A DNA stretch of 64,000 bases, from assembly GCA_965649765.1 (NCBI GenBank), contig OZ287753.1:62930001-62994000 (forward strand), in the 5' to 3' direction. Of this stretch, positions 24,401 to 54,400 are shown one piece after another. Numbering within the stretch: the first letter of the stretch is position 1; the number at the start of each line of letters is the position of its first letter. Position numbers and translations under genes: made by a program. The DNA comes from Bispira polyomma. Lineage: Eukaryota. The notes under the pieces are model-generated. The model did not search any database. It had not been told where the DNA came from and saw only the letters and a list, made by a program, of their open reading frames with translations.

Positions 24401-27400
24401 ATTGCATAAAAGATTCTTCGGTTGGAGCCCCCCCCCCCCTCCCCCCCCGACTAAGCCATGGTCAAATTTACAGGTGACAGTTGTTGGGTAATTAACCATC
24501 GGAACAGTTAGGTCATGACCTAGTTATTTTTAAGTTTGTGTACCAGAATTTTTTAACTGAATCAAATGCCTTGTTAACGTCACTGAGGGCTTTTTAAACT
24601 GGACAGCAAGCAAAATCGTGACAACGAGGTGTCCAAAACCTAATCTCCAAAGCTAGACGCTTAGACCATTGCTCAGATGGCAGCTCTAACTGAATCATAT
24701 TCCAGTAAACGGTAACTATTTAATCAACAGGTATTTCAATCTCAATTACAATAAAATGTCCCAAATTCATGCTAAAAATGTTGTATTTTGTGTGTTTTCA
24801 GCCTCCATACAATACAGTACAGTACACACTAGAGGGAGATAACTTGGCCCGGGAGTACTTTGTGGTCAACTCAGACTCTGGACTCATACACCAGAGGAAA
24901 GCTGTACAGTTTGACCCCGCTAAGACTATAGAATATAGGGTATGTAGCAGATCACTTAACGAATTCATCCGCGGAAGCGCCCACTGGGCGACACGTTGAA
25001 ATTTGAGAGAAACCGGGGGTGGGCGATTACATGAGCTTTAGTAGGGACCGCAAACGTGAGCTTTAGTAGGGACCGCAAACAAGGTCAATAAACTGCGTCA
25101 TTCTACGTGATTTTGTTTACGTTATAATCACTGGACTAAAATAATATAATATGGATGTATAAACAAGGGAAAGTAGCTTATATTAGGTAATTAATATATA
25201 TATCATGTCTGGTACGTATTTTTGTGTGTCAAATTCTGTGTTTAGGAGCTTTTTGGCGCATTTTTGTCTTGTTAGAATGATAAATTACTTATTCTTTCAG
25301 TACTTTCGGTATATATTACCATGAATACTAACTTGTTGCTTCATGTTAGCTAACCTACAAACTTACTCTAGCATCTTTCAGCACCATTGTATTGATTAGT
25401 AAAACTTTATATATTATAGATTCAGTATTTTTTTGTCGCTAAATCTCTCTGGCACTGACCTTGTTGTATTGATTATTTATAGCCTATGTATAATAATTCA
25501 GTAACATGTGTCTTGTAGCTGACTGTCTCTGACCTTAACCTTGTTATATTGATTATTTATAGCCTATGTATAATAATTCAGTAACATGTGTCTTGTAGCT
25601 GACTGTCTCTGACCTTGAACTTGTTGTATTGATTATTTATAGCCTATGTATAATAATTCAGTAACATGTGTCTTGTAGCTGACTGTCTCTGACCTTGACC
25701 TTGTTGTATTAATTATTTATAGCCTATGTATAATAATTCAGTAACATGTGTCTTGTACCTGACCTTGACCTTGTTGTATTGATTATTTATAGCCTATATA
25801 GAATGTATAATAAATTCAGTAACATGTGTCTTGTAGCTGACTGTCTCTGGCACTGGCCTTGTTGTATTGTTTTGTTTGTGGACTATGCCTGTCTAAAAAT
25901 TCAGTAACATGTGATTTGTAGCTGACTGTCTCTGACCTTGAACTTGTTGTATTGATTATTTATAGCCTATGTATAATAATTCAGTAACATGTGTCTTGTA
26001 GCTGACTGTCTCTGACCTTGACCTTGTTGTATTAATTATTTATAGCCTATGTATAATAATTCAGTAACATGTGTCTTGTACCTGACCTTGACCTTGTTGT
26101 ATTGATTATTTATAGCCTATATAGAATGTATAATAAATTCAGTAACATGTGTCTTGTAGCTGACTGTCTCTGGCACTGGCCTTGTTGTATTGTTTTGTTT
26201 GTGGACTATGCCTGTCTAAAAATTCAGTAACATGTGATTTGTAGCTGACTGTCTCTGGCACTGACCTTGGCCTTCCAGAACCATGTGCTGTTAACAGCAA
26301 TGCGTCTGTAACAGTGCGTGTGTTCCGTAATGAGAAGTCCCCCCTGTTCTCTGATGGAGGCCAGTATACTGCCACCATAAAGGAAGACCTGGCTGTACCA
26401 AACAGAGTCACCTCTGTGGATGCTACTGATGGAGACCAACAGGTAGTATTATTATACATTTATTATTACATGTATACATTTTCAACACACCTTATTGATG
26501 CTAGGCATCTTCTAAAGCGCAACAGCAGAATCAGCAATCCAATCGTGTGATCCGTGGACATAGCAAAGTCACAAGGGAAACTATGGTGGGAAGGCCAGGC
26601 CAAAAAGATAGGTTTTAAGTTTTTACCTAAAACCAATAAGTGTGTGAACAGAGTCAGCTATTTACAGTCATCACTTATACAAGTGACCATCTTCAAAATG
26701 AACGACCTTTTTGAGGCCTAATAATTCTGAAAATATCCTAGACACTTTTTTTATAAACATTCAGTAACATGTGATTTGTAGCTGACTGTCTCTAGCACTG
26801 ACCTTGGCCTTCCAGAACCATGTGCTGTTAACAACAATGCGTCTGTAACAGTGCGTGTGTTCCGTAATGAGAAATCCCCCCTGTTCTCTGACGCAATTAG
26901 GCAAAATCAAGAAAGATGATATTAAGCCTTTTCTGGACACGTTCCATGTTATATTTGTGAAAAAACTCTTTTTGACTCAGAACTTAATAAAGATTTTACA
27001 GTTCTTGCAAATTGTAAATCTTCTGAGTTATGTGACACAGTTGAGCTGTTAGATCCATAACCTTTGAATCTTCTACCTACTAGATGAACACAAAAACAAC
27101 TGCTGTACCACTGTATTACAATTAATATCCAATTAACCTTTTGACCCCTATGTCTGTTGGCAAGCAGTTGACACCCCAAAAATATTATTTTAATTTGCTT
27201 CAGTTCGTCGCCATAGGAAGTTGTTAGCACAGCAGAATTCCTCATGTAAAAAATTATATGTGGGAACCGTTATTGAATACTGGAAGTAGTCTGTGGTGTG
27301 TGTTTCAGTGACTCCAGCTATCTCTAACCTATTGAGTGACCTGCAATTCCTTCAGTGTTCACTGTAATAGTTTCTCTAAGGACTAAAAAGGTTAAAAGCA

Positions 27401-30400
27401 CCAGTTGCTGCCATTTAGAAGTAGAACTGCTATAAATCAAATATATACTGTCAGAACATTAAGCTTTTGGTTCTGTTTAAAATAGAAGCAGCCTTTTGGT
27501 ATAAAACATTTGGAAAATATATTTGTTTAGATAATAAAGCATGTAGTGTCAGTTGAGATACACTCCGGTCTTGTTCATATAGGAGCCGTTTGGACGTATA
27601 AACTATGCTGTAATTGGTGATGACAGTGCACCAGCTTACTTCTCTGTAGAAGAAGATTCTGGAGAAATCAGAGTACAACAAAGTCTACAGGGGGATGAGG
27701 ACACCAGTTATACTGTATGTATCAGTGGTTTTTATTGGCTGAGTCATGTATTCTGATTTGCCGAGGTTGTTGAGACCTCATGGTTATTATTTTTAAGTTT
27801 TCATCTTATTATCAACAATTTACATACAATGTTTTAGGTGTGTTGGGGCTTTCCTAGATCTGCCTATTTAATAGGTAACATATAATAAAATTATTTAAGT
27901 TATTGCTAACAATACAGTAATTGTAGTTATATATTGCTACAGTTGTCTTCAATGTCTTAAGTTATATTAAAGGTTTTCATCTAATATATCCATATTTTAT
28001 ATACTTATTTGTGCTGTACCAGTTCACGCCAACCCAGATTGAAATTATAGTCAATATGTTTTTGTAGGTAGATTATCTTCAACACTAATGTTAGTATTTC
28101 ATACATGACAATATACACTAAATGATTTCACATGGGAATTGTTTGTTTTATTAATTATAATGTGATATTTACCATTTTTTACTAGTCCTTGGCATGAACC
28201 AGTACAGTACAACTAGAATTTTGGGTGGGGAGATTTCCTTAGATCTCTGTTTAATATGGAATACATAAATTGTTCAAATTATAGCTGCCCATACAGTAAT
28301 AGCAATTATATCTAGCTAATATTTGTAAATATATATGTATAGGTAGATTATTGTATCTTCAATGTTTTTGTCTCATACTGTGTTTGAGAAACGCATCTGT
28401 AAATAATTCTAATCGAGGGTTGGGTACTCTCGCCCTCCCAGAATTCTGTCACACATTGTACAAAAAGGGTAAATAAAAATATTTTTGGAAAAAAAAATTA
28501 CAGTAATAGCAATTCTATGATTTTTTCACTGTCTTCCTATGATGTGGTTTCCAGTTGAAAGTGATTGCAGTAGACGGTGGGACACCTCCCAACATCAACA
28601 CAGCCACTGTAGTAATCACTGTGGAGAGAAACCTAAATGCTCCTGAGTTTGAGAGAACCAGATATGAAGTGGATGTGCTAGAAACTCATCCATTGGGGGA
28701 AGCCATGGCAACAGTGTCAGCTACAGATGTTGATGTGAATGTAAGTGGTTTCTATATGTCTTCTGTCAAATGTCCAGGTCCAATTATAAAAGGATCTCCT
28801 CTCACTGGTAAAGTTCACAGCTCATTTTCTCTGAATAGACATTTTATTATATTACGTTCATCTTAAATTAAAGACCAAATTTTAGCAATAGTATGTCAGA
28901 CATGAGTTGATTTACAAATTGCTTCCATGTACAAAACATTCCACATCGTTAAGATTGAGTATGGGTTTGAGGACCATCGCAGGACCATCTTTTGTGAGCG
29001 TTAGTACAAGTACAAGGTAACACCGGCAATTTCTGATATTGTCGCTCACAGAAGATGGTCCCTTAATGCTGTGGTCACACTGGACTTACGTTTTGATTAT
29101 GCATAAAAAATTGCTAACGTATGGTAAAACGTAATGAAATGTAAGCAGAACATAGTATACTTAAGTAAACGTAAGCATGCATGAGTAAGATGGTCCCTCA
29201 ATATCCGGTTTTTTCAAAAACGTCTTAATTTTCGGATTGCTCGAAATTTGGTACATTTTCGGCCGATTTCTAAAAAACTTTACTAACGATTAGAGGGAAT
29301 GTATTACACGTATTTAATGCGTATTTGACTTAAAGGACGACAGTAAAACAAACTATACATCCAAATAATATTAAAAGCGAGGAGAACGAGACATGTTTAT
29401 AAACGTTAAAAACCAGGAGAACAAGAAAGAAAAGAGTTTAAAAATGTGGCTAACATATTTCAAGCAAGGCGAATAAATTTCTAAAACGTGGCTAACGAGT
29501 CAAACATAATTGAAACGGCTTTTAAAACATTTTAAATGCGTGTCCAAACGTGTACAGATGCGTACTGAATGTGTACAAAACGGCCCATCATTGATTTTTG
29601 CTACGTTTCCCGAATTTCCCACGGTTTTTCACTTTATTTTTTCCCATTTCCGGAAATTAAAATGTAACACGATTGTACTCAATGTGACCACGGCATAAGT
29701 GACTGTGGGTTTGAGCTTGAGTTGGCATATTTAGTTAATATACTATCTTCATTCTAGACTTAGATGAATTACTCAAATTGAATTTAAATTCTTACAAAAC
29801 TGAATTCATTCTCATTGGTAAATTTTTTTCTGTTGTTGTGCTTTTGATGATGCCTTCCATTGATAGGGCGTGTTAAAAATGCCAAATACAATACAAACTT
29901 GTCATGTTGTGTTTCAGTCTTTCTTCACCATGAATGTAAATAGGTTCGAGGTTGAGTGGATACATTGAGCTCCTGTACTTTTCTTGTTTTCCAGTCTCCA
30001 CACAATGAAATAAGATACTCACTACTACCCAACCAGGGCTTGGTCAATTCTTTGTTTACAGTTGATGCAGAGTCAGGCGACGTCTACCTAAGACGCTCTC
30101 TACTGGATGACACCAGTGAAAGATATGAGGTATAGTGTATATTGTACTGAGTTAGTGTAAACTAATCATACTGGATGACACCAGTGTAAGATATGAGGTG
30201 TAGTGTATATTGTACTGAGTTAGTGTAAACTAATCATACTGGATGACACCAATGAAAGATATGAGGTATAGTGTATACTTTAATGAGTTAGTGTAAGCTA
30301 ATCATACTGGGTGATTTCTATGAACGTTCGATTATATCATTTACTGTAAGCCTGCGCTTCCTTTCAGCACATTTTTATCGGCCGACATCGGCTGACGTCG

Positions 30401-33400
30401 GCCGATTTTATAAGTCCTTATTTAATATTACCAAGCGCTTCCTTTCAGCATATTTGCATCAGATCCGACGTCGGCCAACATCTGTTGGGCCATCAGATTT
30501 TATCTGTCAGGGAGGGAAAAAATTGGGAGGACTGACCGATTTTGAAACAAAAATGGCTGCAAAAAAGCTATCATAGGTAGAGTTTTCATCCCATACATAC
30601 TCAATATTTGTTAGATGCTGGCATTGGAAATAGCAGGAGAAAGCTTATTTTATTGTGATTACAGTGCTTTTTTCCCCACCAAAATCCGTTAAAAACGGCT
30701 GAGATATTTAAGTTTACAGATGGGTACCCCATTTAACTTCCTCTTCTACTGTGAGTAATACGTCACAGCAACTTCATAATGACGTCAGTTTTGTAGCTAC
30801 GTCACAACTTACACATAGGAAGTAAATATGGGTACCCATCTATAAGCTTATATATCTGAGCTGTTTCTCAACTGATTTTGATGCAAAACAAAGCACAGTA
30901 ATCACAATAAAATAGGCTTTCTCCTGCCATTTTCTAAAGTCACCATCCCACGAATTTTGAGTGTATATCGAAAGAAAGGAAGCACAACCTCGGCCGACAT
31001 CGGATCGGATCGGACACCTTCAAATCGGCCGACGACGGAATGTGCTGAAAGGAAGCATAGGCTTAGCTAGTTGTACTAGGAGATATCGATGTAAGTTTTG
31101 ATTTTATCATTTACTGTAAGCTAATCATACTGGGTGATTTCAATGTAAGTTTTGAATATGGGAACATATTGCGCCCTGAGTGGCTGCACTGGGAAAATTA
31201 TCACTTAATCAGCTGATTTTTACTGGAAATATTAGTCATTATCCTATGATTTTACAATATGGTGTTCATAAAGGATCCAGGAGTAAAGTAAATACAATTT
31301 GGAGAAGACAAAAAAAGGATATTTCAGATAAATAGTGGATAAATATTTCTGTGTAAACCCAGTTTATAAGCAGTGGTAAGCATATGAGATTGATGTGTAC
31401 TTGTGTGATAAATACAATAGCCAGTAGCAGACTCTGTACTAGTCATTTTTAATGTATGTACGGTACAACCAATCTGATTTGCTAGAGATTAGACAAAAAG
31501 TACAATCAAGTACAACATTAAAGTCATTATCACTGGATAAGGTAAAAGTCATAAGAAAAAATAGGCTGAACAAAAGAGGAAAAAGGGCAGGAAAAAACCG
31601 CAATAAACAGAAATACCTGGATACAAATAGAACTACTGTATCAGAATGTGAAATATGTATAGATAATGAGCCAGGACAAAATAGCAGTGAAAACATCAGT
31701 ATACTGCTCATAAATTCCCAGTCTATTAAAAACAAGGATATTATACTCGCAGAATACATCAATGATTTAAACATAGACCTGTGTGTTGTGACTGAAACCT
31801 GGCTAGCTAAAAACACTGATGAGGTGGATGCTTGGATAAGTACCTGTGAACTGACAAAACGTGGATACTGCCTTGATGCTGTTAGCAGAGAATCAAGAGG
31901 TGAGGGTCTGGCACTTAATTATAAGAAAGAGTATAGAGTTAAGAAACTTAATGAGTGTGAACTACAGTCATTTCAGTTTACCAAATGGAGGGTTTCTCTT
32001 CCACAAAAGGTAGTCACACTAAATGCAATATATCATCCTCCATACTCAAAGAAACATCCAATAACAAATGCTACCTTTCTAAATGAATTCAGTGATAAAC
32101 TCTCTGACCTAGCAATAGAAGACAATACAAACTCAATTGTTCTTGGTGACCTCAACATTCATTTAAATGACAAGCAAAGCTATGACACTGAAACACTGAA
32201 TGAAATAATTAACTCACTGGGATATAAACAACATGTTAGTTTTTATACTCATGTTGCTGGACACATATTAGATGCAGTAATTAGCAAATTTGACAGTGAC
32301 TTAATATTCAAATGTGTTCCAGGAAAATTTGTGTCAGATCATCGTGCTGTAATTTGTTATTTAAGATGTCACAAAAATAGCCCAAAAAGTCAAGTAAAAT
32401 CAGTGAGAAAATGGAATAGAAAACTTGACCAGTTATACATTGATTTAAGTAAAATTGAACTGCCTACTGATGAGTCAACGACTATTGATAATGTAGTTGA
32501 ATTTTTTGAAGATAATTTGAAGTTATGCTTGGACAAACATGCCCCCTTGGTAGAAAAAAAAATTATACCTAGAAGAAAATTTCCATGGTATAATGAAGAA
32601 ATCAAATCACAAAAACAGAAAGTGAGAAGAAGAGAAAGAATATGGAGAAGATATCGAACACCAGACACTCTGAAAGCTTTAAAAATAGAAAGAAACAAGT
32701 ACAAGTATATGTTAAAAAATTCCAAAATTTCAATCTTAAGTGAAAAGATTGAAGAATGTGGTAAAGACTCAAAAAAACTTTATAAACTGATCACCGAACT
32801 CACTGGAGGCCCCAAAGAAAATCCTTTTCCTGACAACATTGATGATGATAGTCTAGCCAATAAATTTGCTGATTTCTTCCTGAACAAAATTAAGAAAATT
32901 AGAACAGATTTAGAAAGTTGTCCCAAATTTGAGCCACAACAAAGGGATTGTACAATACTACATAACTTTGTTCCCCTAAGTGAAGATGAAGTACATAGCA
33001 TAATCTGTGGCATGGCTAGCCAAACTTGTGAATTAGATGCTCTTCCAACCAAAGTGTTAAAAAAAGTTATTGGAGCCATTATTAAACACATCACTCTCAT
33101 AATCAATAAGTCATTGCAAACCGGTACCTTTCCATGTACATGGAAGAACGCAGTTATCAGACCACTTCTCAAGAAAAAAGGACTAGACTTAGAATTGTGT
33201 AACTACAGACCAGTTAGTAATTTGTCATTTTTATCCAAGGTTTTAGAAAAGGCAGTTCTGGAACAATTCAATGACCATGTTGAAACTCAAAGTCTCTTTC
33301 CTGACTATCAGTCTGCTTACAGACAGGGTTTTTCCTGTGAGACTGCACTGGTAAAATTAACAAATGACATTTTGTGGGCCATGGAACATCAAAAAGTAAC

Positions 33401-36400
33401 TGCAATGATGGCGATTGACTTATCAGCTGCATTCGACACAGTTGATCATGAAATCCTACTTAAAGTTTTAAACAAACAATATGGTATATCTGGAAGTGCT
33501 CTGAAATGGTTCCATAACTATCTAAACCCAAGATCATGCTGTGTGAACATAGGTAAAAGCTATTCTAATAAAACGCCACTAGATTTCTCAGTACCACATG
33601 GCAGTTGTGCGGGTCCAACTCTCTACTCTAGCTATGCAAGTACCCTGAAATACGTAGTTCCAGCTGATATGTCACTGCACGGATATGCAGACGACCATGC
33701 AATCAAATTGTCATTCTCAGCCAACAACATCTCAGCTGAAGCCACCACTCTTAGATCATTAGAAAATTGTGCTGAGGATATAAAATTGTGGATGGATTCC
33801 AACCGTCTTAAAATGAACAGCTCTAAAACTGAATTCATCCTGTTTGGCCATCCAAAGCAACTCAGAAAATGTTTCTTACATAGTTTAAAAGTGAATGGTG
33901 AAGATGTTAATTCAAGTGCTGACATTAAGTATCTAGGAGTCTATTTGGATAACCACCTCAACTTCAAACAACACATTACCCATAAATGCAAAGTAGCTAT
34001 GCTAAACATTCACCGAATTAGAAACATCAGATCCACCCTTACAATGGAAGCAACACACACACTAGTTCTAGGCTTAGTAATGTCACATCTCGATTTTTGC
34101 AATAGTGTACTGTTTGGTTTACCACAAAATTCAATCAAGAAATTGTAAAGAGTTCAAAATATAGCTGCCAAATTAGTACTTAACAGGACAAAATATGAAA
34201 GCTCGACTGAATCCAGAAAGCTACTTCACTGGCTACCAATTGCTGCCAGGATTAAATTCAAAATTATGGTGCTTGTGTACAATTGCCTGCAAGGAAATGC
34301 TCCAGAATATTTGCAAAACCTGCTGACTCAAAAACCAGTGTTTAGAGAAGGACTCAGATCCTCGACTTTCTCAAACAATCTTCTTGTACTTAAAACAAGC
34401 CGACACACTTTTGCATCAAGATCATTCAGTGTGAGCGGCCCATCATTGTGGAATGAGTTATCCTGCAACATCAAGGACTGTAACAATCTAAAACTGTTTA
34501 GGAAAAAAATTAAGAAATATCTCTTTGACAAGTATTACAAGTAGACTTTCATGAAAATGCGCATTTGAAACAGAATTGTAAAAATGCGCAATATCAAATG
34601 CAATATGTTATGTTATGTTATGTTAATATGTCATTTACTGTAAGCTAATCATACTGGGTGATTTCAATGTAAGTTTGATTATATCATTTACTGTAAGTTA
34701 ATCATGCTTGATGATTTCAATGTAGGTTTGATTATATCATTTACTGTAAGCTAGTTGTACTAGGTGATTTTAGTGTAAGTTTTTATAATGTCATTTACTG
34801 TAAGCTAATCATACTGGGTGATTTCAATGTAAGTTTTGATTATATCATTTACTGCAAGCTAATCATACTGGGTGATTTCAGTGTATCTTTGGTTAAATAC
34901 TGCTGACCTCTATGTTAAACCATTAAAGATATATTTGCAGAAAATATTGTTGTTGCCTGTCTGTGATTCTTAACATTAGAGAATAATTGAAACCACATTC
35001 TTCTAAGCTTAATGCAATTAGAGTTATGTTGTAAGTATACATTATAGGATGGTGCTGTTTCAATATTCAATGATTGGGAACGGCAAAATTACAAAATACT
35101 GCATAAGTGGAAATTTTTACTGGAAATTAATTTTAGCTATGAGTTCATGAGTTGGGATAAAAAGAAAATTACTTGCCAGAGAAAGTTTAAATTTGTAATA
35201 TTGATCTATTGACTAAAAATAACATTTAATGATTCAACTCCAGTAAACTTCTTCAAAATTGTAAATTGGTGATATTTTCTTGCAGATAAAGTGTCCAATA
35301 TTACATTACCTACAAATACAAAGGAAAGGCAGTAGAAATAGAAGTGTTTGAATATTTGTTAACATTAAAACTACCTCTCCAACAACCATGTAACAACTTG
35401 TCATGTTAGTATTTATATAACACACTTTCAGTTTGACATCCAAGTCACAGACCTAGGGATTCCAGCAATGACAGCTAACAGTCCTGCTAGGATGACCGTG
35501 CGTGTGGTGAGGAACAGGAACCAGCCTAGCTTTAGTAACATGCCCACTGAGATGTCACTGAGCCAGATTAAACCAGCACGAGACACAGTGTTTATTGTAG
35601 AGGCCAGAGACACTGACCAGCATGAACCATTTAATACTCTCACGTAAGTACTAAAGTGTGTAATGTAGAGACCACAGACCAGACTGAACCATTTAATACT
35701 CTCACGTAAGTACTGAAGTGTGTAATGTAGAGACCACAGACCAGACTGAACCATTTAATACTCTCACGTAAGTACTGAAGTGTGTAATGTAGAGACCACA
35801 GACCAGACTGAACCATTTAATACTCTCACGTAAGTACTGAAGTGTGTAATGTAGAGACCACAGACCAGACTGAACCATTTAATGTAAGTAAGTATTCAAA
35901 TAATTGAAGAATAAATGAAGAATATTCTTAATAAATATATTTTGTTACTTAGTTGAATTTAGATTGTAATCTAACAATATCTTTGTTGATTTTTTAAATG
36001 GCAAACTGAAGTAAAAAACAGAATGCTAATGATACTAGTCTTTCAAATTTGTATAAACTTAAAAAAAATATAGTACATAAATTCATAATCTCAAAACTGC
36101 AAGTAATGCTAATCTCTTGCCTTTCTTGTCTGATGTCAAAAAGCTTGGTTTGAGTACTACCTATCGCCACAATAGATATCCGTGACCTTACCATTGCTTG
36201 ACCAAAGTCCAAACTGATCAATGATGTCTGGTCACCTATGGGGTCTCAGAGTATCTTGCCACTTTCGTCCATCTTACTTCGCCCAAATCTGGGTCACAAA
36301 AATCTTGTGTATTCTAAAATGATATTCTATATAGTATTCTATCACTGTGCCTAATACCCTTGTAAGTAGCTGGCTTGACTACTGCAATTCCCTTCTATTT

Positions 36401-39400
36401 GGGTAAAAAAGTTTTATGATAATATGTTACCATCCATTCAAAACTACAAACTGACTCTGTTTTTGGGACTTCTAGATTGGTTACTTGATTCTGTTGTTGC
36501 ATTTTAGAAGATGCCTCACATTAATAAGGCGCGTGAAAAATGCAAACTACAATACATGACCTCCTTTAAATACAAATCTGACACTTTCCCATGTATATCT
36601 GTCATAGCTGGCTCACTCCAAATATAAATACAGTCAAACCCTTTAAGTAGAACTCTGATAAGTGAAATTACCTGTTAAGTAGAAGTTATTCTAAGATCCC
36701 ATTGCTATATTTCTCATTTAAATTTACCCTGTTTATTAAAAGTTATGTTAAGTGGAACAAACTTTTGTGATCCCTTCAAGTTCGACTTAACAGGGTTTTA
36801 CTGTACATCTCATTTCATGTTTTCCTATGTACTTTTACAGGTATAGTATAGTTGGTGATGACAGGGCTCCTACTTATTTTGAGATTGACAATGAGGGACA
36901 AATCACAGTGAAAAGTGACCTCACGGGTGCTCCAGGCTCTGAAATAGTCTACAAGGTAAAGTTCTCTTTACCATTTAACTGTACAATAATGCTTGGAAAA
37001 ACAGGATTTTATTTCAAAGGAATAAATGGGGAATTTTAGTATAAAATCAACAGACAAATGTTAATATGGAAGAGTGAAAGTGTCTTCATAAAGTCAAAGA
37101 TTTTAAAAATAAAATTTGAATGATCTAAGCTGTACATTATAGCTGTTGCTATATTATGAACCCTCTGTTATATGACAAATTAGGCTGACCAAGTTTGGTA
37201 ATGCAAGGTATGTAATTGTAGTGGTATAGCTATTTACAATACAAGATGATTGTTATCTCTCATCTTTTATAGAATTGTTTACATTTTATAGGAATATAAT
37301 ATAGGAATAACCTATGACAAAGCTCGGTATACGGTACTTTTTACCACGATTGGTGGCGTAGTAACACGAAGGCAAAGCATGACAAATTAAATTATCTTTT
37401 CTGATTCAAGCTACTTTGACTGAAAAATTATCTTATTGAAGGAACTATATCTACTGGGGATCCAGTACACTTTAGGCAAACTTTGTCTGTTTCTGTTTAT
37501 GGGTATATGGTTAATTTTACCGAGGCTGTCGGCTAATCGGAACCGCCGACACTGCCGTGTCATGTTAGAATAAGGGTAAATAAAGGTCATACTACTACAA
37601 GACTTAGTGTAACAAAGGTTACCAGATATACTTTCTGTGGTGTACCAGTATTTGTTCATGACTATATATATTTGCCCTTTCAAGGTTCGAGTTCAGATAG
37701 AAGATGGTGGTGTTCCCCCTAAGAGAGCTACAAGTATTTTGACAGTGAACGTGTTAAGAAACCTCTTTGCACCAGAGTTTGAGGCGGCAGACTACGGGGA
37801 CACTATACTAGAAACACACAAAGTAGGGGATCAAGTGTTCTTTGTGACTGCCACTGACAGGGATGAAAAGGTAGGTAACAGGTTGGTTAGAAACTTGACC
37901 AAATGTGTTTTATTGACCATAAAGTGTACCAACCGATTCCTAACATAGGCTTCAGGTTAGAGCCACGCCAGCTGAGGCACAGTTAAGCCAGAAAAGCTTT
38001 TAGTGACCTTAAACAGATATTTAACTCAGAAGAGCTGTACTTGCGAACACACAAAAGCTTGTACCCAACTTTTCTTCTGGTAATACTAATGTAGAGTAAA
38101 AAATCTAAAATTCGCCAGCCCTAAAATTTAGGAGAAATCAAAAAAAAATAGTGAAAAATAACTGGAATTTAGGTAAGTAAGGCAAAATAGTCACACAAAA
38201 ATCTCAATTTCAGCAAATATTACCAACAATTCTACTAAAACACAACATTTTCTAGGTGTAGAATTTCAGAGACTGTAGATTCCTTACTCTACAAAATGTC
38301 AGCATCACTCATCAAGGTTGGTCACTTGTTAATGAGTAGAAGCTCTCAGTCTAAAAGTATCGTCCTAAAAAGAAGATTGATAGCAAGTGAAGGGAACAAG
38401 CTTCTGGCTGACATCCATAATATGACAAGCCTAAGAAGGCTAAAGTTATACTAGGCTTCTCCTCCTTACATATTTGTACTAAGACACATATATATACACA
38501 GTCCACACCTTCCTCATGAACCCCATTATGTACCACGGGCTGTATTCACATAAGGTCTTAATCTTAACTTATTCTTAAACTTAATATATATGTATTAAAA
38601 TAGGCTGCCTACTCTTAGTGCCAGTGTTCAGAGCAAAGTCAGCACCAACCAAATATCTTTTTTTACTGTCACTGGGACTATAAGTCCAAAATCTTAACTT
38701 TTTTTGCCAAAATCAAAACCCAAAATCTTAACCTTTTCATCCAAAATCAAAGAGCAAAATCTGGACCTTTTCATCCAAAATCAAGGAGCAAAATCTTAAC
38801 CTTTTCAGCCAAAATCAAGGAGCAAAATCTTAACCTTTTCAGCCAAAATCAAGGAGCAAATTCTTAACCTTTTCAGCCAAAATCAAGGAGCAAAATCTTA
38901 ACCTTTTCATCCAAAATCAAGGAGCAAAATCTTAACCTTTTCATCCAAAATCAAGGAGCAAAATCTTAACCTTTTCAGCCAAAATCAAGTAGCAAAATCT
39001 TAACCTTTTCATCCAAAATCAAGGAGCAAAATCTTAACCTTTTCAGCCAAAATCAAGTAGCAAAATCTTAACCTTTTCATCCAAAATCAAGGAGCAAAAT
39101 CTTAACCTTTTCAGCCAAAATCAAGGAGCAAAATCTTAACCTTTTCAGCCAAAATCAAGGAGCAAAATCTTAACCTTTTCAGCCAAAATCAAGGAGCAAA
39201 ATCTTAACCTTTTCATCCAAAATCAAGGAGCAAAATCTTAACCTTTTCAGCCAAAATCAAGTAGCAAAATCTTAACCTTTTCATCCAAAATCAAGGAGCA
39301 AAATCTTAACCTTTTCAGCCAAAATCAAGGAGCAAAATCTTAACCTTTTCAGCCAAAATCAAGTAGCAAAATCTTAACCTTTTCATCCAAAATCAAGGAG

Positions 39401-42400
39401 CAAAATCTTAACCTTTTCAGCCAAAATCAAGGAGCAAAATCTTAACCTTTTCAGCCAAAATCAAGGAGCAAAATCTTAACCTTTTCAGCCAAAATCAAGG
39501 AGCAAAATCTTAACCTTTTCATCCAAAATCAAGGAGTAAAATCTTAACCTTTTCAGCCAAAATCAAGGAGCAAAATCTTAACCTTTTCAGCCAAAATCAA
39601 GGAGCAAAATCTTAACCTTTTCAGCCAAAATCAAGGAGCAAAATCTTAAGCTTAAGACTAATTTAAGACTAAAAGCTTTTTGTGAATACGGGCCCTGGAC
39701 TATTCTTTACCCTTAACTCCATGGATGGTGCACCCTATTAGGACAGCCATTTTGTGCTATACAAATTAGTCTTTTGTACTTGACAAATGACTTGCAATAA
39801 TGTTCAAAGAGCATATTTAACCTATTTTATATGACACCCCCCTAAAAATCTTGGTACACTTAGGTAGTTGTTTATTTATATTTCAGAGCCCACATAATAC
39901 CATCATGTTTGAACTAGATCATGATTATTTTGCTGTGGATTCAACATCTGGTGTGGTGACCTTAAAAAGGTCATTGCTCGGAGATGCAACAAGAACATAC
40001 AGGGTATGATTTTTTTCTGTTACCATTGAATTATGTGCACTATATAACAGTGACAAGATTAGAATTATGGTTTAATGTGTTTCAAAAGCAATAGAAAAAT
40101 ATCCCAAGGCCAAGGTAGTGTTCATGTAGCCAATATCTAATAAGCAGATGTGTTATTTTTGATACTTTACATAAGTTCATAAAACAACCTCTACAAATTG
40201 GCACACCGCCGTATTTGTTTATAATTTCCCCAATCAGTAACATTCTAAGTTACACAAATGAAGTCAAAGCTTTTTTAATTTACCTGTATTAAACTGTTTC
40301 TGTGTACATAAATAATAATGTCTGTGAAGTAAAAAAATGTAATTTAAGTTTTATCAAAGACTCTATGACATGTAATGGGTCAAAAGGCTGTCATCATTAT
40401 GTCATCATAATTCTTTCTTGCAGAGAAACTTTTTTGTGCTTCAATAAAGCTTGTTTTTGTTGTATACTACAACATTCTATTCGGTGTCCTTAATATAAAG
40501 GACAAACACAGGCTTAGCATTGTAGTCAGTAGTTTGTTTTCTATTATTCTCTATTCCAGCTTAATATCTATGCAGTAGATCAAGGTACCCCTTCTCAGAG
40601 AACTTTGAAGGAAGTGGACGTTAATGTGATCAGAAATGACCACCCTCCCCAGTTTGAGTCATTATCAAACTTTAATGACTTGAAGCAGGATGCTGACCCC
40701 AGTACTGAGGTTGTGGCTGTTACAGCCAGGGATATGGATGAAAGGGTAAAGTATCTGGTGTACACATAGTGAGCACTGGATGATAGTGTCATCTGTAAAC
40801 TATTTTAAGTACCATAATAATGCAGGATGACTTGAAGCAGGATGCTGACCCCAGTACTGAGGTTGTGGCTGTTACAGCCAGGGATATGGATGAAAGGGTA
40901 AAGTATCTGGTGTACACATAGTGAGCACTGGATGATAGTGTCATCTGTAAACTATTTTAAGTACCATAATAATGCAGGATGACTTGAAGCAGGATGCTGA
41001 CCCCAGTACTGAGGTTGTGGCTGTTACAGCCAGGGATATGGATGAAAGGGTAAAGTATCTGGTGTACACATAGTGAGCACTGGATGATAGTGTCATCTGT
41101 AAACTATTTTAAGTACCATAATAATGCAGGATGACTTGAAGCAGGATGCTGACCCCAGTACTGAGGTTGTGGCTGTTACAGCCAGGGATATGGATGAAAG
41201 GGTAAAGTATCTGGTGTACACATAGTGAGCACTGGATGATAGTGTCATCTGTAAACTATTTTAAGTACCATAATAATGCAGGATGACTTGAAGCAGGATG
41301 CTGACCCCAGTACTGAGGTTGTGGCTGTTACAGCCAGGGATATGGATGAAAGGGTAAAGTATCTGGTGTACACATAGTGAGCACTGGATGATAGTGTCAT
41401 CTGTAAACTATTTTAAGTACCATAATAATGCAGGATGACTTGAAGCAGGATGCTGACCCCAGTACTGAGGTTGTGGCTGTTACAGCCAGGGATATGGATG
41501 AAAGGGTAAAGTATCTGGTGTACACATAGTGAGCACTGGATGATAGTGTCATCTGTAAACTATTTTAAGTACCATAATAATGCAGGATGACTTGAAGCAG
41601 GATGCTGACCCCAGTACTGAGGTTGTGGCTGTTACAGCCAGGGATATGGATGAAAGGGTAAAGTATCTGGTGTACACATAGTGAGCACTGGATGATAGTG
41701 TCATCTGTAAACTATTTTAAGTACCATAATAATGCAGGATGACTTGAAGCAGGATGCTGACCCCAGTACTGAGGTTGTGGCTGTTACAGCCAGGGATATG
41801 GATGAAAGGGTAAAGTATCTGGTGTACACATAGTGAGCACTGGATGATAGTGTCATCTGTAAACTATTTTAAGTACCATAATAATGCAGGATGACTTGAA
41901 GCAGGATGCTGACCCCAGTACTGAGGTTGTGGCTGTTACAGCCAGGGATATGGATGAAAGGGTAAAGTATCTGGTGTACACATAGTGAGCACTGGATGAT
42001 AGTGTCATCTGTAAACTATTTTAAGTACCATAATAATGCAGGATGACTTGAAGCAGGATGCTGACCCCAGTACTGAGGTTGTGGCTGTCACATCCAGGGA
42101 TGTAGATGAAAGGGTAAAGTATATGGTATACACATAGTGAGCACTGGATGAAAGTGTCACAAAAGTCTGTAAACTACTGGGAACTATGCCAATATAATCC
42201 AATATCACCGACAACAGTCTGCCCTAAACTTTACAGTACAATTGCAATTTACACCAAAAACCACATTCTCAAAAGAGTCCATCCTAGTTTTTCATAATAG
42301 TCTGAACTAAAAGCCCATGGGGTTAATTGACAGAGGGTTTGGAATATTATATGTATTATACCAGGATCTACTAATTGTTCAGTGGATCCTGGTGATATTT

Positions 42401-45400
42401 TTTTTTAATTTAAACATCTGAAGCAGTCGATATTTACCTTTTGTTTATTTATGTTCATACCTTGAATGTATATAAAAAGGTATATAAAAAGTGTTAGTTG
42501 ACAATTGCAAAATGTATCATCTTTAACAAAATTGAATGTAGACTATTCTATTGGACGGCTGTTTTTAATTAGCATTTGCCAAGAAAATATAAGTGAATAT
42601 CTTTTTTATAATATCTCTCCATAATAAAATATGTAACTTTTACACAAAGCTGTATAGATTGTCAGCCATGCTTGTTGTATGGAACAAAGTTGATTATTTA
42701 ATCTTTATTGCAATGAAGACATTCTCCACATTTTGTTTGCAATTAACACATGTATTGTAAGAGCTGTCTGTAGAAAAGTCACTTTTTTTCAAAAGTGACT
42801 GCATAGTACAGGTTTAAATGTAGACACTAGGCATATTTCACAGACGAGAATCGGTTGAATCTGTGCCCTCTAGATTAGGATCTAAATTCATTGGATTTGT
42901 TGGTTTTGTGAAATGCAAAGAGTTGGTTTCTGGATTCAAAATGGCTACCAATGATATCGATTTTAATATTACACATTTAAAATAAGTACTTCTCAAGTTC
43001 ATTTGATAATGTTCAAGTTCTTTTGCTGTTCTGAGTGTTTGTATATTTTGTATATTTGAATATGTGCAACTTTTGTGTGACTTTCCCTGCATTTTTGCAA
43101 TAAATTGTGGGTAATCCATTCGATTTGAATCTGCTGAACTACCTCTTGAGGACGATCAACAGATCACTGAAGCAGTTCACTATTCGGTGCATTTCACAAC
43201 CGAATCCGTTGATCTACGAATCTAGATTTGATGGATTGTGTCTGTGAAATACGCATATTGCTGAGTTCTATTGGTAACTGTCTTCTCCTGTTGTTACATT
43301 GTTAGGACCCCTTCAACAAGGTGAGCTATGAGATCATAGGTGATGACACGGCCAGTAGTTTCTTCAGGATAGACAGAACCTCTGGCCAGATTACAGTCAG
43401 CAACAACTTGGCTAATGATGAGACGAGGGTCTACTCGGTAAGTGTATGTTACAGTGAGGGGGTGCAGGAAAACCCTCAATAAAAGATGGAAAATGGGCAA
43501 AAAAATCAAGGACAGACTGTTGTTTAAGATAGAGTGAAACTTGTATTATAAACATCACAAAAGGGAACCCTCAAAAGTGGTCTTTATTGACAGGTGGTCT
43601 TTTATATAGAGTTTGAATATTATTAAACATTCTCAGTCTTGAAAAATCAATGTGTGGTCTTTAAACAGAGGTGGTCTCTCTCTGTAGTGGTGGTCTCTCA
43701 CTGTAGAGGTGGTCTCTCTGTAGAGGTGGTCTCTCTATGCAGGTAATCTGTCTATAGAGTTGGTCTCACTGTAGAGGTGGTCTCTCTATAGAGATGGTTT
43801 CTCTCTATAGAGGGGGTCTCGCTATAGAGGTGGTCTCTCTCTATAGAGGTGGTCTCTCTGTAGAGGTGGTCTCTCACTATAGAGGTGGTCTCTCACTATG
43901 GAGGTGGTCTCTCTCTATAGAGGTGGTCTCTCACTATGGAGGTGGTCTCTCTCTATAGAGGTGGTCTCTCACTATAGAGGTGGTCTCTCTCTGTAGAGGT
44001 GGTCATTCTCTATAGAGGTGGTCTCTCACTATGGAGGTGGTCTCTCACTATAGGGGTGGTCTCTCGCTAGAGGTGGTCTCTCTGTAGAGGTGGTCTCTCT
44101 CTATAGAGGTGGTTTCTCACTATAGAGGTGGTCTCTCTCTATAGAGGTGTTCTCTCTTTATAGAGGTGATCTCTCTATAGAGGTGGTCTCTCACTATAGA
44201 GGTGGTCTCTTTATAAAGGTGGTCTCTCTCTATAGAGGTGGTCTCTCACTAGAGAGGTGGTCTCTCTCCAGAGGTGGTCCCTTGAGCAGGTTTGACTGTT
44301 ATATAAATGTGGGCGAAGCATTGTACACAATGGAAAATTCATCATTTTATGTAGTTGGTGTACTAGGTAAATTGTTTGGTGTCTCTGTAAAATGCATTGC
44401 TTATTTGTATTTAACTAGCACTAAAACACTAAATGTAATAGAGCAGTGGTTTGTATTCATTGGTACAAAGAAATATTGCAAAACACTTTGTGCGAGGAAA
44501 CATAAATCTGGTGTATAATATGGAGCTGAAAACAATTTAACAAGTAGTTTAAAAAGATGCCTTCAAATTGAAAAATAAACTTGAGGTTGGTTGTGTATCA
44601 GTATCAGTAACTTGAGTCCCATAAAATCACTGAATTACATAGTTCTAGCCAGTGATGGAGGCTCTCCCCCTAAAACAGACACCACAGTAGTTTACAATGT
44701 ACCAGTGACTGTGGACAGAAACCTCCACAAACCTGTGTTATAACAAGCCTGTATATCACTGTATTACACATAGATCAGAGTTCTAGCCAGTGATGGCGGT
44801 TCTCCCCCTAAAACAGGAACCACAGTGGTACCAGTGACTGTGGACTGAAACCTCCACAAACCTGTGTTGTAACAAGCCTGTAAATCACTGTATTTACATA
44901 TAGATCAGAGTCCTAGCCAGTGATGGAGGCTCTCCCCCTAAAACAGACACCACAGTGGTACCAGTGACTGTAGACAGAAACCTCCACAAACCCGTGTTTG
45001 ACCCGAACAATTACCAGGCGATCATCAAAGAGACACAGTCCTTGGGAGCTACATTGGCTACAGTGGTGGCAAATGATGAGGATATGAGGGTATGTAATCT
45101 GATAGTATTTGTTTACATGGATGTATGTAACTGTCATACGACACATACAGTGTTTTTATCAGGCGCTGCCTGATATTGTTATCATTCCACAAAAGGCGCC
45201 GCCATCTTTGAAATAATATGTAACGCCTTCATGGATTGGTTAGAAGCAATCGACCCCATCAAAACTGAGGGGATGTCAGATTTGCCTGAGTATATAGTGG
45301 CCATATCAATGTTACAGTGTATTTCACATTGTGCACCTGTGTGTGTTTTTAAAGACTACTCTTGTATATTATTGGTGTAGTCGTTCTTGAATTGTGGAAG

Positions 45401-48400
45401 TAGCAGGTTCGACTCCTGTTAAATAAAGCTAATTCATTGGTGGCATAGGTACGAAGATAGGGGCCGTGGTGGCATAGTAGGTAGACATGCTTGCTAATAA
45501 TCCCTGGTCACTCTCGCCAATGTGGGTTTGAATCCTATTCATTCCTTCATTGTGGGAAAGTTTATCAGATACTTTCTGTCGGTCGGAGGTTTACTTGGTG
45601 CTTCAGCTGTTAAAAGCGACGTAAAACCCCACTAAATTCAAATTCATTGCCTGGAATAACATCGTTGGGCAGTGTATAGTGTGGTTTTTACTGCAGGAGC
45701 CAGACAATACAGTGGAGTATGAGTTAGTGGGAGATGACAGAGCCAGAAGTTACTTTGATGTGGACAGAGTGTCTGGGGATGTGTTTGTGCACAGTGAACT
45801 CACCATGGATACAACAGAACAGTACAATGTATGTATAGATTTAAGTCATATTTTGAATTGTCAAACCGCTTGAAGTATAACTCTGTTAAGTTAGTTTTTC
45901 TTTATTTGGAAGATAAAAATTGTAGTCCCACAAAATCCTTTTCTAATAAAATGTCCTAACATCCTCTCTAGTACCGTTTAGGTTATATTGGGATGGGTAG
46001 TTGGAAACGCTGGAGGAAACACTGCATACAGTTGATCAAGGTTCTGCACTGAAACCAGTTGCCCACAGTAAGTAACTACCACCTGTTAAGTGGAAATCCT
46101 ACTAAAGTGTAAACAAAGGCTTTCATGCGACCATTTATCAACATTCCCAAAGCTGTTTAGTCTGTTTGTTTTTAATTTTTAACTCAACAGTAACATGCCT
46201 TATTGATGCGAGGCATCTTCTTAAGGGCAACAACAGAGGGGAGAAAAATTAAGGATAGGGTGATTTAAAGACGAAGATTTAAAGTTTTTTTCTGAACCCA
46301 GAAAGTGTTTCGAGTGATCTAAGCTCAACAAGGAGACTGCTCCATAACATAGTGGCAGTGATTGAGGAAGCTCTTGATCCAACTCTCTTGGTAGCTTTTA
46401 TCAAGGAAACAGAAAGTCTCTCACCCCTCTTATAGTTACATCATAGTGACCAGTCTAAATCCAGGTCAATACCTTTAACTACACCTGTTTTTGTCAGGTA
46501 TTCATCATAGTAACCAGTCTAGGTCCAGTTCAATACCTTTAACTACACCTGTTTTCGTCAGGTATACATCAAAGCCACAGATCTGGGTGACAACACACAA
46601 ACCTCAGAGACCACGGCGACTGTGGCTGTTACTGTACAGAGAAATAAAGCCACACCCATGTTTATGAGTCCTGAGACATACCAAGCCACCATTAATGAGA
46701 ATGTAGGTTCTGGAAATGAGGTCACAAGGATTGAAGTAAGGGACGAGGATGTAGTAGAACCGTTCAATGAGGTTGACCTCACTGTGATTGGTGACGATGC
46801 CGCGTCGACCTTCTTCAATGTCATAGATAATACCCGAGTGATAATACGGCCAAACGCTAACTTGGCATCAGATCGTGAAACAGACTATACCTTGAGGATA
46901 GAGGCTAAAGATCGTGGGACTCCACCTAAGACTAGTACAGCTACTGTCCAGATCACAGTCATCAGGAATCTGAATACTCCTCGATTTCTTACTGAAAATA
47001 GGGGAGTCACAATCCCTGACAACGCGGCCCCAGGGACATTTGTTATCCAAGTGGAAGCTGAGGATCTGGATCGGGAAGCTCCGAATAATGAGATCGAGTT
47101 TGAAATAGATCCCGAGGGAGAAGCCAAGACGTACTTCTACATCAACCCAAATAGTGGGGAAATCACGGTACTCAAGTCTGTGCTGGAAACGTCAGAGAGT
47201 TTGTACAGGATCAAGGTCATTGCAAAAGATAAAGGTCAGTTGTGTATTAGGTATTGAAATAAAGCCAAATATTCTGAAATAAACACCCCTGGGAGTTGAT
47301 GCATTTTTCCACAGGGGGAAAGGGGGGGGGACTATTTAAGACCAAAGTGTGAATCCATTGGTCAGTGGTCAGTGGTCAGTGGTCAATATTTAAAGTTCCG
47401 GCTTGACATGTCGTAAGTTGCTGAACATGCTAAAAGTTCTAATTCTGGCTCATTCTGTCTTCTCTATTATCTATGCTGACTAATTTTATTGGTTTATTTT
47501 ATCTATTAGATTTCGAATGTAAAAATTATATGTTCATTTTAATGGCTTCATCAAGTACAGGTACATTCTTTGAAGTTTCGGTTCTGCTTTGCTATTTTTT
47601 ATAATTTTTCATTTCTTCAATGTAAATAATTTTAATAAAGAAGATTGTGTACCTTTTTAACCCAATTACCTTAGCAGTCATACACTGTATATGTACTGTA
47701 TACACAGGTTCCCCACAGCGCAGTGATGACACCTATGTAGATGTAACAGTGCTCCGAGATCAGGGTAATCTACAGTTTGCTACATCCGAGTACAGAGCCA
47801 CTGTGTCAGAAAACAGACCTGTAGGACAGGAAGTGACCAGAATCAGCACCCAGCCCTCTGTAAGTAGTTTAATTGGTTGCGAGTGATTGTAGCCACAGTT
47901 TTCAATTTTAATGGAAAGTTTTGGCTCTGATTGTTACAGTTTTTGTTTCTTATATAGGCTTTAACTTTACCAAAAATTTCATTTTTTATACAAAAAATTG
48001 TCATTTGTATTTTTCGATTTACAGTAAAACATAATATAGTGAACAGCTCTGAATAGTGAACACCTCTGTACAATGAACACTTTGTCCTGGTTCCCATTTG
48101 CCACTAGTTAATTGTACTGAATGCTGAATGCTGAAGATCTCTTTGTAGTGAACACTTTGGCTAATATACCTTTTTCTGCTTGTGCAAATGCAACCATCTA
48201 GCACGAGTAAATGTCAGTTCAATCACTGCCTAGCTCATGATGGCCCCCTCATTTGGAACAGCCTACCTGATCATGTTCGCCTGGCTCAAACTTTCTCCTC
48301 TTTCAGGAGTAAGCTGAAGGCCTATCTTTTTGAACAGGCTTTTCCACCTTAGCCGTCGCAACCATTTACGGTAGTCTCCCTGGTTACGACTTCCATCCGG

Positions 48401-51400: not shown

Positions 51401-54400
51401 AGGAGAACAGGTAAGTCAGAAAAGGCAGAGTGTACAAAAATCGGAGTGTGGTCACTTATGCTTAAGATCTGAAGGTAGCTAGTAACCTTAGTAACCTATT
51501 TTAATCAATGCATTCTATATGGCTTTGTTTATTTCATTCAAAAAAACCTTTGAAATTTTGTTCTACCACGTAAATATCAAACAATAAACTCCTTTATGGT
51601 TGTGTTCTGGGATCACAATGCACATGTTCAGAATTCTAGTGTGGGTAAAAAATTTCTCGTTTACAATGGATGCAGCAGTTAAATTTGTGAACTTCTGTGA
51701 GGTTTTTTGCATAATATTTACCTTAAATCTGTAAACCTTGTTAAGACGTTACTCCTCAGAAAACACAGTCAAATATCTCAGACAACATTCACTGAATTTT
51801 AATTTTGTTAAAAGTACCAAGCTAGAAAGTGTGTCACTTAATTTTTCAGGACATGTAAATTTTTAATTTGTAAATTTTGTTTTTGATATATGACAGCTGG
51901 TATAGATAATGTTTTTGATATGTTATGTACTCACACCACCATGATAGGTGAGATAACATGGATAAGGTGGTATTTTTGATTTTCTCTTGAATGCGGTCAG
52001 TTGTGTTTAAGATCTAACATCAGCTGGTAACCTATTCCTTACAGCAAGTATAGTTACTAGCATTTTGATATGTTATGTACGTAAACCACCACGGTCTATG
52101 AGGTAATTTGGATCAGGTAGTAGTTTGAGTTTTCTCTTGCATGTGGTCACTTGTGTTGAAGCTGGTAGCCTATTTATTCCAGCTAGTCTAGTTAGTGTTT
52201 TTGGTTGTATTCCCTGTTCCCCAGGATACCATGGTGTATGAGGTTGTCCATAAGGAGCCAGAGACCACCTACTTCTACCTGAACCCCAGTAGTGGTGTGA
52301 TCACACTGGCCAGAGTACTCAGTGTAGACCAACAGGTCGACTACAGGGTGAGAAACTTTAATTTGAAATTAGTTAAGTGTTACAGAAGCAGACTCGGAGT
52401 TTGAGATCACAAGGAGCTGAATAATGCTTCAATTCTTTATTTTTTTCTAAAACATATTAAATAACAAAAATAAAGCAAGTCATTATACAAGAATATCAAA
52501 AAAAATGTAAAAGAAGCCTACAATGTCATACTTCTGCTCACAATGTCTACTGTGTCTACATTGTCCAGTAATCTGTGTGTTTGTCCAGTTCAATGTGTTA
52601 GCCAGAGACCAGTCAGAGCCAGAGAAGACAGCCACAGGCCTAGTGTACATTAGGGTACAGAGAGACCTGAGGATACCGTCTTTTGAGAGTGTGCCCTACA
52701 CCAAGACCATCTCAGAGAAGTTACAACCTAATGAAGTCATCTATAACCTCAGAGGTCGAGATGATGACAAAATGGTAGGTACTATAGAAGTAAAACAGTG
52801 GGAGGTTTGTAAGGATGTTGTCTTTTGAGAATGTACCCTACACCAAGACCATTTCACAAAAGTTACAGCCTAATGAGGTCATCTATAATCTCAGAGGTCA
52901 AGATGATGACAAAATGGTAGGTACTATAGAAGTAAAACAGTGGGAGGTTTGTAAGGATGTTGTCTTTTGAGAATGTATCCTACACCAAGACCATTTCACA
53001 AAAGTTACAGCCTAATGAGGTCATCTATAACCTCAGAGGTCGAGATGATGACAAAATGGTAGGTACTATAGAAGTAAAACAGTGGGAGGTTTGTAAGGAT
53101 GTTGTCTTTTGAGAATGTACCCTACACCAAGACCATTTCACAAAAGTTACAGCCTAATGAGGTCATCTATAACCTCAGGGGGAGAGACAATGACAAAATG
53201 GTAGGTAATATAGAAGTGTAGGGGGTTTTGCAAGGATGCCGTCTTTTCACATCGTACAGGAGATCCGGTATACTTATAGCCACGTTTGAATATGTCTTTT
53301 GAGAGTGTACCCTACACAAAGATAAGTAAGAAAGAGGAGAAAAAGTGTTTATTAAATTGAATATTTAGAATGTCTAGCTCTAATATTTTAGTCCAACATC
53401 CTTCATATACAACCTAAAGCGGTTCAGCTGTATGTACATATATGCCCAACACTTTTAGGCTGAGGTACGGTGTATCAGGACTTGTACCAGTAATGTGTGT
53501 ATATATATATCCTACACTTTCAGGGTGAGTTGAGGTACGGTGTATCAGGACTTGTACCAGTAATGTGTATATATATATGTCCTACACTTTCAGGGTGAGG
53601 TACGGTGTATCAGGACTTGTACCAGTATTGTGTATATATATATGTCCTACACTTTCAGGGTGAGGTACGGTGTAGCAGGACTTGTACCAGGAATGTGTAT
53701 ATATATATGTCCTACACTTTCAGGGTGAGGTATGGTGTATCAGGACTTGTACCAGTAATGTGTATATATATATGTCCTACACTTTCAGGGTGAGTTGAGG
53801 TACGGTGTAGCAGGACTTGTACCAGTAATGTGTGTTTATATATATATCCTACACTTTCAGGGAGAGCTGAGGTACGGTGTGTCAGGACTTGTACCAGCAC
53901 CGTATTTCTTTGGAGTGAGAGCAGATACAGGAGAAGTGTATGTCAAGACGAACCTCAAGGCAGACAAAGCAAGCCAATATGTGGTAAGTTATCAAGCCCT
54001 TCTATTTTGAGTTAGTACTCTGTTAGTCCCTCACAAGTCTCTCATACTGTGCAAGTATAATCATTATGTGGTCAACTGGAATGGCCCCCAGTAGAGCACT
54101 TAAGAAAAAAAAAATAGTGAAAACTAGAATATTCCGGGATCAGCATTTCTATTTGGATCTAATCCAAAATTGAATGGATTATTTCTTGTCCCATGCCCCG
54201 CTCTCTTCACCAAATTTAATTTAAATCAGTTTAGTAGTTTATTGTGTAATTTTGCGGACAAAGAAACAAACTCCAGATGGTCACAGTTAAAAACATAACG
54301 TCCTTGGTGGAGGCAAATATACGTAACTGTCAGTTGTGTAAGATTTTAGACAAGTTTAATTGAAATACTCTGTGTTAAAAATTGGTTATGTACTTAATAT

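Follow-up and report, generated by a model that had tools for sequence, protein, structure and literature searches.

A tandemly amplified exon end in a giant cadherin gene of Bispira polyomma: a 'mirage' minisatellite that is most likely silent in splicing

Introduction

Tandem duplications of exon-intron boundaries, known as 'mirage' minisatellites, have been described in amphioxus at Adh3, globin, troponin C, and PGBD5 genes (PMC3087553, PMC3902484), with repeat units of 10-160 bp (PMC3087553). As presented in those accounts, splicing was found by RT-PCR to be undisturbed by the arrays, and the inner copies were homogenised with the copies at the edge diverged (PMC3087553, PMC3902484). A route from such arrays to new exons and introns was offered there as a hypothesis for the amphioxus globins (PMC3087553). 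In humans, intron 7 of F7 carries a 37-bp VNTR in which only the first of 5-9 identical donors is reported to be used, and CBS, 6-16, lamin B2, and PDGF are named as other genes with minisatellites at a junction (PMC1557585). The gain of introns and exons by internal tandem duplication is attributed to work by Rogers (1989), Zhuo (2007), and Gao and Lynch (2009), as cited in PMC3087553, and the intronic repeats treated in PMC12783039 lie away from junctions. In a literature in which subscription journals were barely covered, we found no genome-wide count of mirages and no lophotrochozoan case.

Here we describe an array of 152-bp units at the 3' end of exon 30 of a cadherin gene in Bispira polyomma, which shows four sequence-level features of a mirage: the tandem unit spans the exon-intron boundary (71 nt of exon and 81 nt of intron-side sequence), a splice signal is present in every unit, the unit is of minisatellite scale and falls within the amphioxus range, and homogenised inner copies (1-8) are accompanied by a diverged edge copy. 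The spanning of the boundary, the repeated splice signal, and the diverged edge copy are all reported for the amphioxus arrays, and the size of the unit is near those given for the amphioxus globins BflGb6 (150-160 bp) and BflGb9 (157 bp, a copy of a 3' exon end). Donor and acceptor types of mirage are likewise found both in amphioxus and here. The amphioxus papers, as far as their accounts of these arrays go, deal with single loci, whereas we scored 816 junctions, found copies at 118 of them, and measured their enrichment over chance; splicing in amphioxus was assayed by RT-PCR, and the present array was studied in DNA sequence.

As at F7, the first unit spans the donor, and identical pseudo-donors therefore follow the real one. 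The F7 unit, however, is described as containing only 4 exon bases, in contrast to the 71 exon bases and upstream in-frame AG of the present unit, so that each copy here is a complete potential exon. The array also resembles the intron and exon gains ascribed to internal duplication, in that a latent AG set before a copied exon end could create exons and introns, but differs from them in that its new sites are putative ones, predicted from sequence.

The host gene

All coordinates below are positions on the forward strand of the window, a 64,000-nt stretch of Bispira polyomma contig OZ287753.1. The gene model was built from profile searches and splice-site inspection; the 47 exons of the window join into 2715 codons without a stop, and the exon numbers used in the initial annotation of this DNA agree with that model. 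The repeats are called cadherin by Pfam, and the gene is that of a giant Cad99C/PCDH15-like cadherin. It takes up about 45 kb ahead of the window and continues for more than 100 kb past it, and its near-full repeats, which are of a single type, number at least 67. Among named proteins that share this repeat type, the nearest are a Cad99C-like protein of an annelid (53% over its first 682 residues) and a protein of a chiton, by which the host would probably be a lophotrochozoan and not a lancelet. Of the linkers in the window, 23 have the form RNxxxPxF and 1 has the form DxNDxxPxF, which means that the usual calcium-binding linker is mostly replaced; the annelid and chiton relatives show this replacement as well. 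Several copies of an element with a reverse transcriptase occur in introns of the cadherin (at about 122-125 and 143-148 kb in window-based coordinates) and upstream (long ORFs).

Anatomy of the array

Exon 30 (40560-40745, 186 nt, phase 0) ends at the authentic donor 40745|40746, whose score of 6.9 is mid-range among 46 real donors, and its last 71 nt (40675-40745) lie within the repeat unit. The array was delimited by TRF at 40675-42159 (period 152, 9.8 copies, 99%) and was supported by the sequence of the units and by a depth ratio of about nine. Nine units follow the exon 30 donor on its 3' side, each with 80 nt running from GT to AG and then a segment of 72 nt; put otherwise, the unit takes in the donor, with the final 71 nt of exon 30 on one side and 81 nt of intron-side sequence on the other. 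The 72-nt segment translates to DDLKQDADPSTEVVAVTARDMDER and first occurs at 40826-40897, then every 152 nt as far as 42042-42113. The initial annotation had described nine in-frame 72-nt segments with this spacing, separated by 80-nt GT-AG spacers, and we recovered them at the same positions; its further claim that the 24-codon segment is in phase 0 and free of stops held in every one of the nine copies when each unit was read.

Units 1-8 are identical to each other and contain eight identical pseudo-cassettes (40826-41961), each with a weak AG ahead and a copied donor behind. The last unit (42042-42175) is an older, diverged copy that runs into the original intron. Its exon part carries 4 changes, of which one is synonymous, one replaces A with S, and two together replace M with V, and the frame is still open despite them, as had been proposed; its first 54 intron bases differ by 3 substitutions and a 6-nt indel. 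The 24-mer context of the donor is identical in eight copies, and the GT is retained in the ninth. Four in-frame AGs in each unit give open cassettes of 72, 60, 57, and 36 nt, and the openness and phase of the segment are not beyond chance because it copies a phase-0 exon end and because there are four such AGs per unit.

In a DNA search of the 1.035-Gb genome, the 152-bp unit gave at least 11 matches, all of them within the array. A dispersed element was considered as the identity of the array and was rejected, since the unit matched this place alone in that search. The AG is supplied by the final 24 nt of the unit, and when these were compared with the exon upstream and the intron downstream as possible sources, both matched no better than shuffled sequence (913 and 1052 of 2000 shuffles, respectively).

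A likely history begins with an old tandem duplication, of which the end copy would be the remnant and has since diverged by about 5%. The exon-proximal unit would then have been amplified and homogenised from the exon side by recent unequal crossing-over, with splicing presumably continuing to join the first donor to exon 31 (43306-43437), which is its predicted partner and whose own acceptor scores 3.3 (leave-one-out) and is as low as that of the array.

Copy number in independent DNA contigs

The identity of the eight copies is itself what might be expected if the array were an assembly artefact or contained far fewer copies than assembled. This was weighed against three public contig sets, which are DNA, covering introns, and represent at most 2 samples of 1 study, possibly including the assembled individual. 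In all three, the array collapses to one circular piece that holds the head-to-tail joint. Taking contig depth as a rough copy measure only, the depth of the collapsed unit over that of the 5' flank was 163.9/18.8, 120/13.6, and 618.8/67.3, or 8.7, 8.8, and 9.2, and over that of the 3' flank it was 8.7, 8.8, and 7.5. An array-free allele was absent from the contigs of these at most 2 samples of 1 study, with depth ratios of 7.5-9.2. Based on the head-to-tail joint and the depth ratios in three sets, we concluded that DNA depth supports about nine units and that the array is not an assembly artefact, an explanation to which we give almost no credence. Because at most two samples from one study are represented, the depth confirms the array and is silent on population variation. 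One contig set (X3) has no cover at 43273-43500, a gap for which a filter may account. Depth also marks the flank at 43558-43660, together with positions 42817-43272, as dispersed repeats of high copy number.

Splice signals and the cassette explanation

The initial annotation had gone further and suggested that the copies are in-frame 72-nt cassette exons, giving transcripts in which the DxD-bearing strand of one cadherin repeat is added 0 to several times. All nine copies are indeed in phase 0, free of stops, and bounded by AG and GT, and a passage from mirages to new exons and introns has been put forward in print as a hypothesis (PMC3087553). The copied full-strength donor is accompanied by exon-internal sequence, so exon definition could include a copy.

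The acceptor is the weaker side of the proposed exon. It has 7 pyrimidines in 17 positions, the lowest count among the acceptors of the gene, in which the 47 real ones have 8-14; the near absence of a polypyrimidine tract had been noted as a caveat from the outset. Its matrix score of 3.7, in contrast, is inside the low range of real acceptors, exceeding that of 6 of the 47 with exon 31's own included, although an equally high score is reached by 26% of the 1599 YAG decoys taken from introns. The introns that such exons would need are also foreign to the host: among 408 modelled introns, only one is of 100 nt or less, and this is a modelling artefact inside another mirage, whereas the remaining 407 are at least 128 nt long, against 80 nt in the array. 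Only 5 of the 408 are shorter than 200 nt, and the median is 712 nt. Thus acceptor and intron length are unlike those of the host's real introns, and the matrix score alone lies within the low real range. On the other side, and against the reading of the copies as silent, if the first donor were joined to a more distant copy, with those between them skipped, the intron would be of normal length.

The geometry itself recurs in most long donor arrays. An open in-frame AG cassette is present in 12 of the 15 donor arrays with units of at least 110 nt (11 of 14 if the 152-bp array is left out), and the acceptor score reaches 3 or more in 5 of those 12 cassettes, with 4 such cases among the other 14 arrays. 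The open in-frame cassette would then be a by-product of a phase-0 exon end copied beside a chance AG. Nor is the present array alone, being one of the 118 junction duplications counted in 816 junctions.

The drift of the copies was examined for signs of constraint. Three of the four exon changes in the ninth copy are amino-acid-changing, and the eight others are too young for a reading of selection; the chance of staying open through four changes is about 86% (arithmetic from the share of stops). Of 20 comparable exons, 18 have Ala before DxD and the other 2 have Gly, and the ninth and oldest copy has lost this conserved Ala. Across arrays, the changes along copy lineages comprise 10 stops against 11.2 expected under neutrality. 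Amino-acid-changing divergence between nearest copies (0.041) is half that of the intron parts (0.080), as would be expected of neutral copies if constraint acted on the real exon only. On the other hand, copy-lineage changes included 117 synonymous ones against a neutral expectation of 79, and 168 amino-acid-changing ones against 205; homogenisation may have spread changes from the exon side to nearby copies, and we tentatively ascribe the synonymous excess to this, although it is not firmly assignable. Selection would probably not favour the repetition of a single strand within a beta-sandwich repeat. With the host's acceptors and intron lengths, the commonness of the geometry, and the loss of the conserved residue all pointing away from use, we consider functional cassette exons unlikely. 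Of the initial proposal, two parts stand, namely that an exon end was amplified in tandem and that its copies are potential in-frame cassettes, and the birth of an exon with 0-9 copies in length-variable isoforms is without positive support and probably wrong.

A different role is conceivable in which the later donors leak, being used rarely, with the resulting stop-bearing mRNA destroyed and the number of copies tuning the amount of cadherin mRNA. The nine copied donors are identical or nearly so to the real one, and read-through to a later donor without use of an internal AG meets a stop after seven codons, so that the message would go to nonsense-mediated decay. Proximal pseudo-donors are reported to be used in human 6-16 and CBS, but F7, lamin B2, and PDGF are reported in the same source to use the first donor only (PMC1557585), and the amphioxus accounts, where they treat splicing at mirages, describe no aberrant mRNA (PMC3087553, PMC3902484). 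We regard such leakage as quite improbable.

The array is, with good probability, a 'mirage' minisatellite of which only the first donor would be joined to exon 31, the copies being predicted to be silent. Judged from its sequence, it is a real, well-formed member of a described repeat class and, taken as a single locus, most likely silent and ordinary duplication debris. Its nine near-identical donors and internal in-frame AG nevertheless make it a clean test case for the idea that mirages give rise to new exons, and partial exon copies of this kind can mislead gene annotation in such genomes.

Frequency and placement of junction arrays

The junction set consisted of the window gene, 69 further introns of the same cadherin, and 293 introns in 12 dynein heavy-chain genes (12 of about 17 loci, in 50-kb stretches on 7 contigs, picked regardless of repeats); the extra gene models were automated, and only refined introns were counted. 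The 118 junctions with copies comprise 50 donors and 68 acceptors and are distributed as 17 of 92 in the window, 21 of 138 in the downstream part of the cadherin, and 80 of 586 in the dynein genes, one dynein entry being an artefact because the model had split a mirage. Individual genes range from 0 of 46 (one dynein gene) to 9 of 34. At 106 junctions the additional copies are intronic in position; at only 2 are they found on the side of the exon, and these two cases are a larger duplication and a modelling artefact.

Uniform placement would put 44.8 of the 260 local repeat clusters across a junction, whereas 125 were observed there, and the excess is present among strict head-to-tail arrays (104 of 182, 22.1 expected), in the youngest strict class (28 of 47, 5.0 expected), and in strict arrays of two copies (23 of 56, 7.5 expected). 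When the interspersed repeats visible in 864 kb were masked, 22 dispersed-repeat arrays dropped, and extra copies removed, 100 of 160 head-to-tail arrays still spanned a junction against 27.1 expected, with a mean intron of 579 nt. Loose repeat pairs showed no excess at junctions (21 of 78, 22.7 expected), nor did units longer than 120 nt, the class of the 152-bp array, with loose and strict arrays pooled (20 of 71, 24.2 expected). Purely intronic arrays crowd the junctions, with 24 of 78 within 20 nt of one against 6 expected. Under this null, which is simple in that faster loss of purely intronic arrays falls outside it and only repeats seen within the 864 kb are masked, junction arrays occur at 3.7-4.7 times the chance rate and at about 14% of junctions.

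If ancestral introns had been about 100 nt long the excess would be cancelled (103 expected), while at 150 nt it stays (79.6 expected, P=0.0002), which for old arrays weakens, but only weakens, the explanation that the introns were simply short. The frequency of mirages showed no link with CpG depletion over 14 gene sets (Spearman -0.11, P=0.71).

That arrays exceed chance several-fold at the exon edges of unrelated genes points to a link between junctions and either duplication or its retention. That tandem duplication is aimed at junctions by a germ-line splicing or exon-edge chromatin process, beyond being merely tolerated there, is an idea that we hold only tentatively and rather doubt; were it true, long donor arrays would be a steady source of ready-made in-frame exons.

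Unit lengths that are a multiple of three are under-represented among the junction arrays (27 of 118, fewer than one third, P=0.009, in one unplanned test on nearest-copy offsets). This shortage could mean weak selection against in-frame read-through.

Other arrays and repeats in the window

Sixteen further mirages were located in the window, all on the forward strand. Donors are repeated at exon 3 (2672-3312), exon 9 (10095-10661, 80-bp unit), exon 25 (30096-30350, 68-bp unit), exon 26 (35608-35890, 62-bp unit), exon 39 (52668-53328, 142-bp unit, which also has an open in-frame AG cassette), exon 45 (62087-62479, 60-bp unit), and exon 46 (63197-63326, 39-40-bp unit). Acceptors are repeated at exon 11 (11749-11978), exon 14 (16248-16552), exon 16 (19693-20130), exon 20 (23398-23757, 116-bp unit), exon 22 (25429-26270, 80-bp unit in about 10 copies), exon 32 (44633-45005, 130-bp unit), exon 34 (46435-46579, 64-bp unit), exon 40 (53429-53907, 65-bp unit), and exon 42 (56361-56498, 56-bp unit).

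At the exon 45 mirage (in the region 61958-62479), the second donor is in frame and free of stops; splicing from later donors would lengthen the protein by 20 residues for each unit, and the frame is open to 62335. In-frame, stop-free read-through of this sort is found in 2 of the 50 donor arrays, and length isoforms may arise more simply from the 60-bp array than from the 152-bp one.

Downstream of exon 22, the stretch 26245-26930 holds a copy of the exon 22 acceptor and of the first 38 codons, 537 nt downstream of the real acceptor and after the exon, and represents a larger, truncated exon duplication that is terminated by a stop. From the exon 25 donor mirage the repeat runs on as a related array of 54-bp units, which is interrupted and resumes at 34618 (30096-34900 overall); the interruption contains an insert with inverted-looking ends at about 30350-31060 and a retroelement-like ORF of 901 codons (31443-34145), its element type judged by eye. 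Purely intronic minisatellites are formed by 28 copies of a 34-bp unit (38687-39653) and 33 copies of a 19-bp unit (43667-44279).
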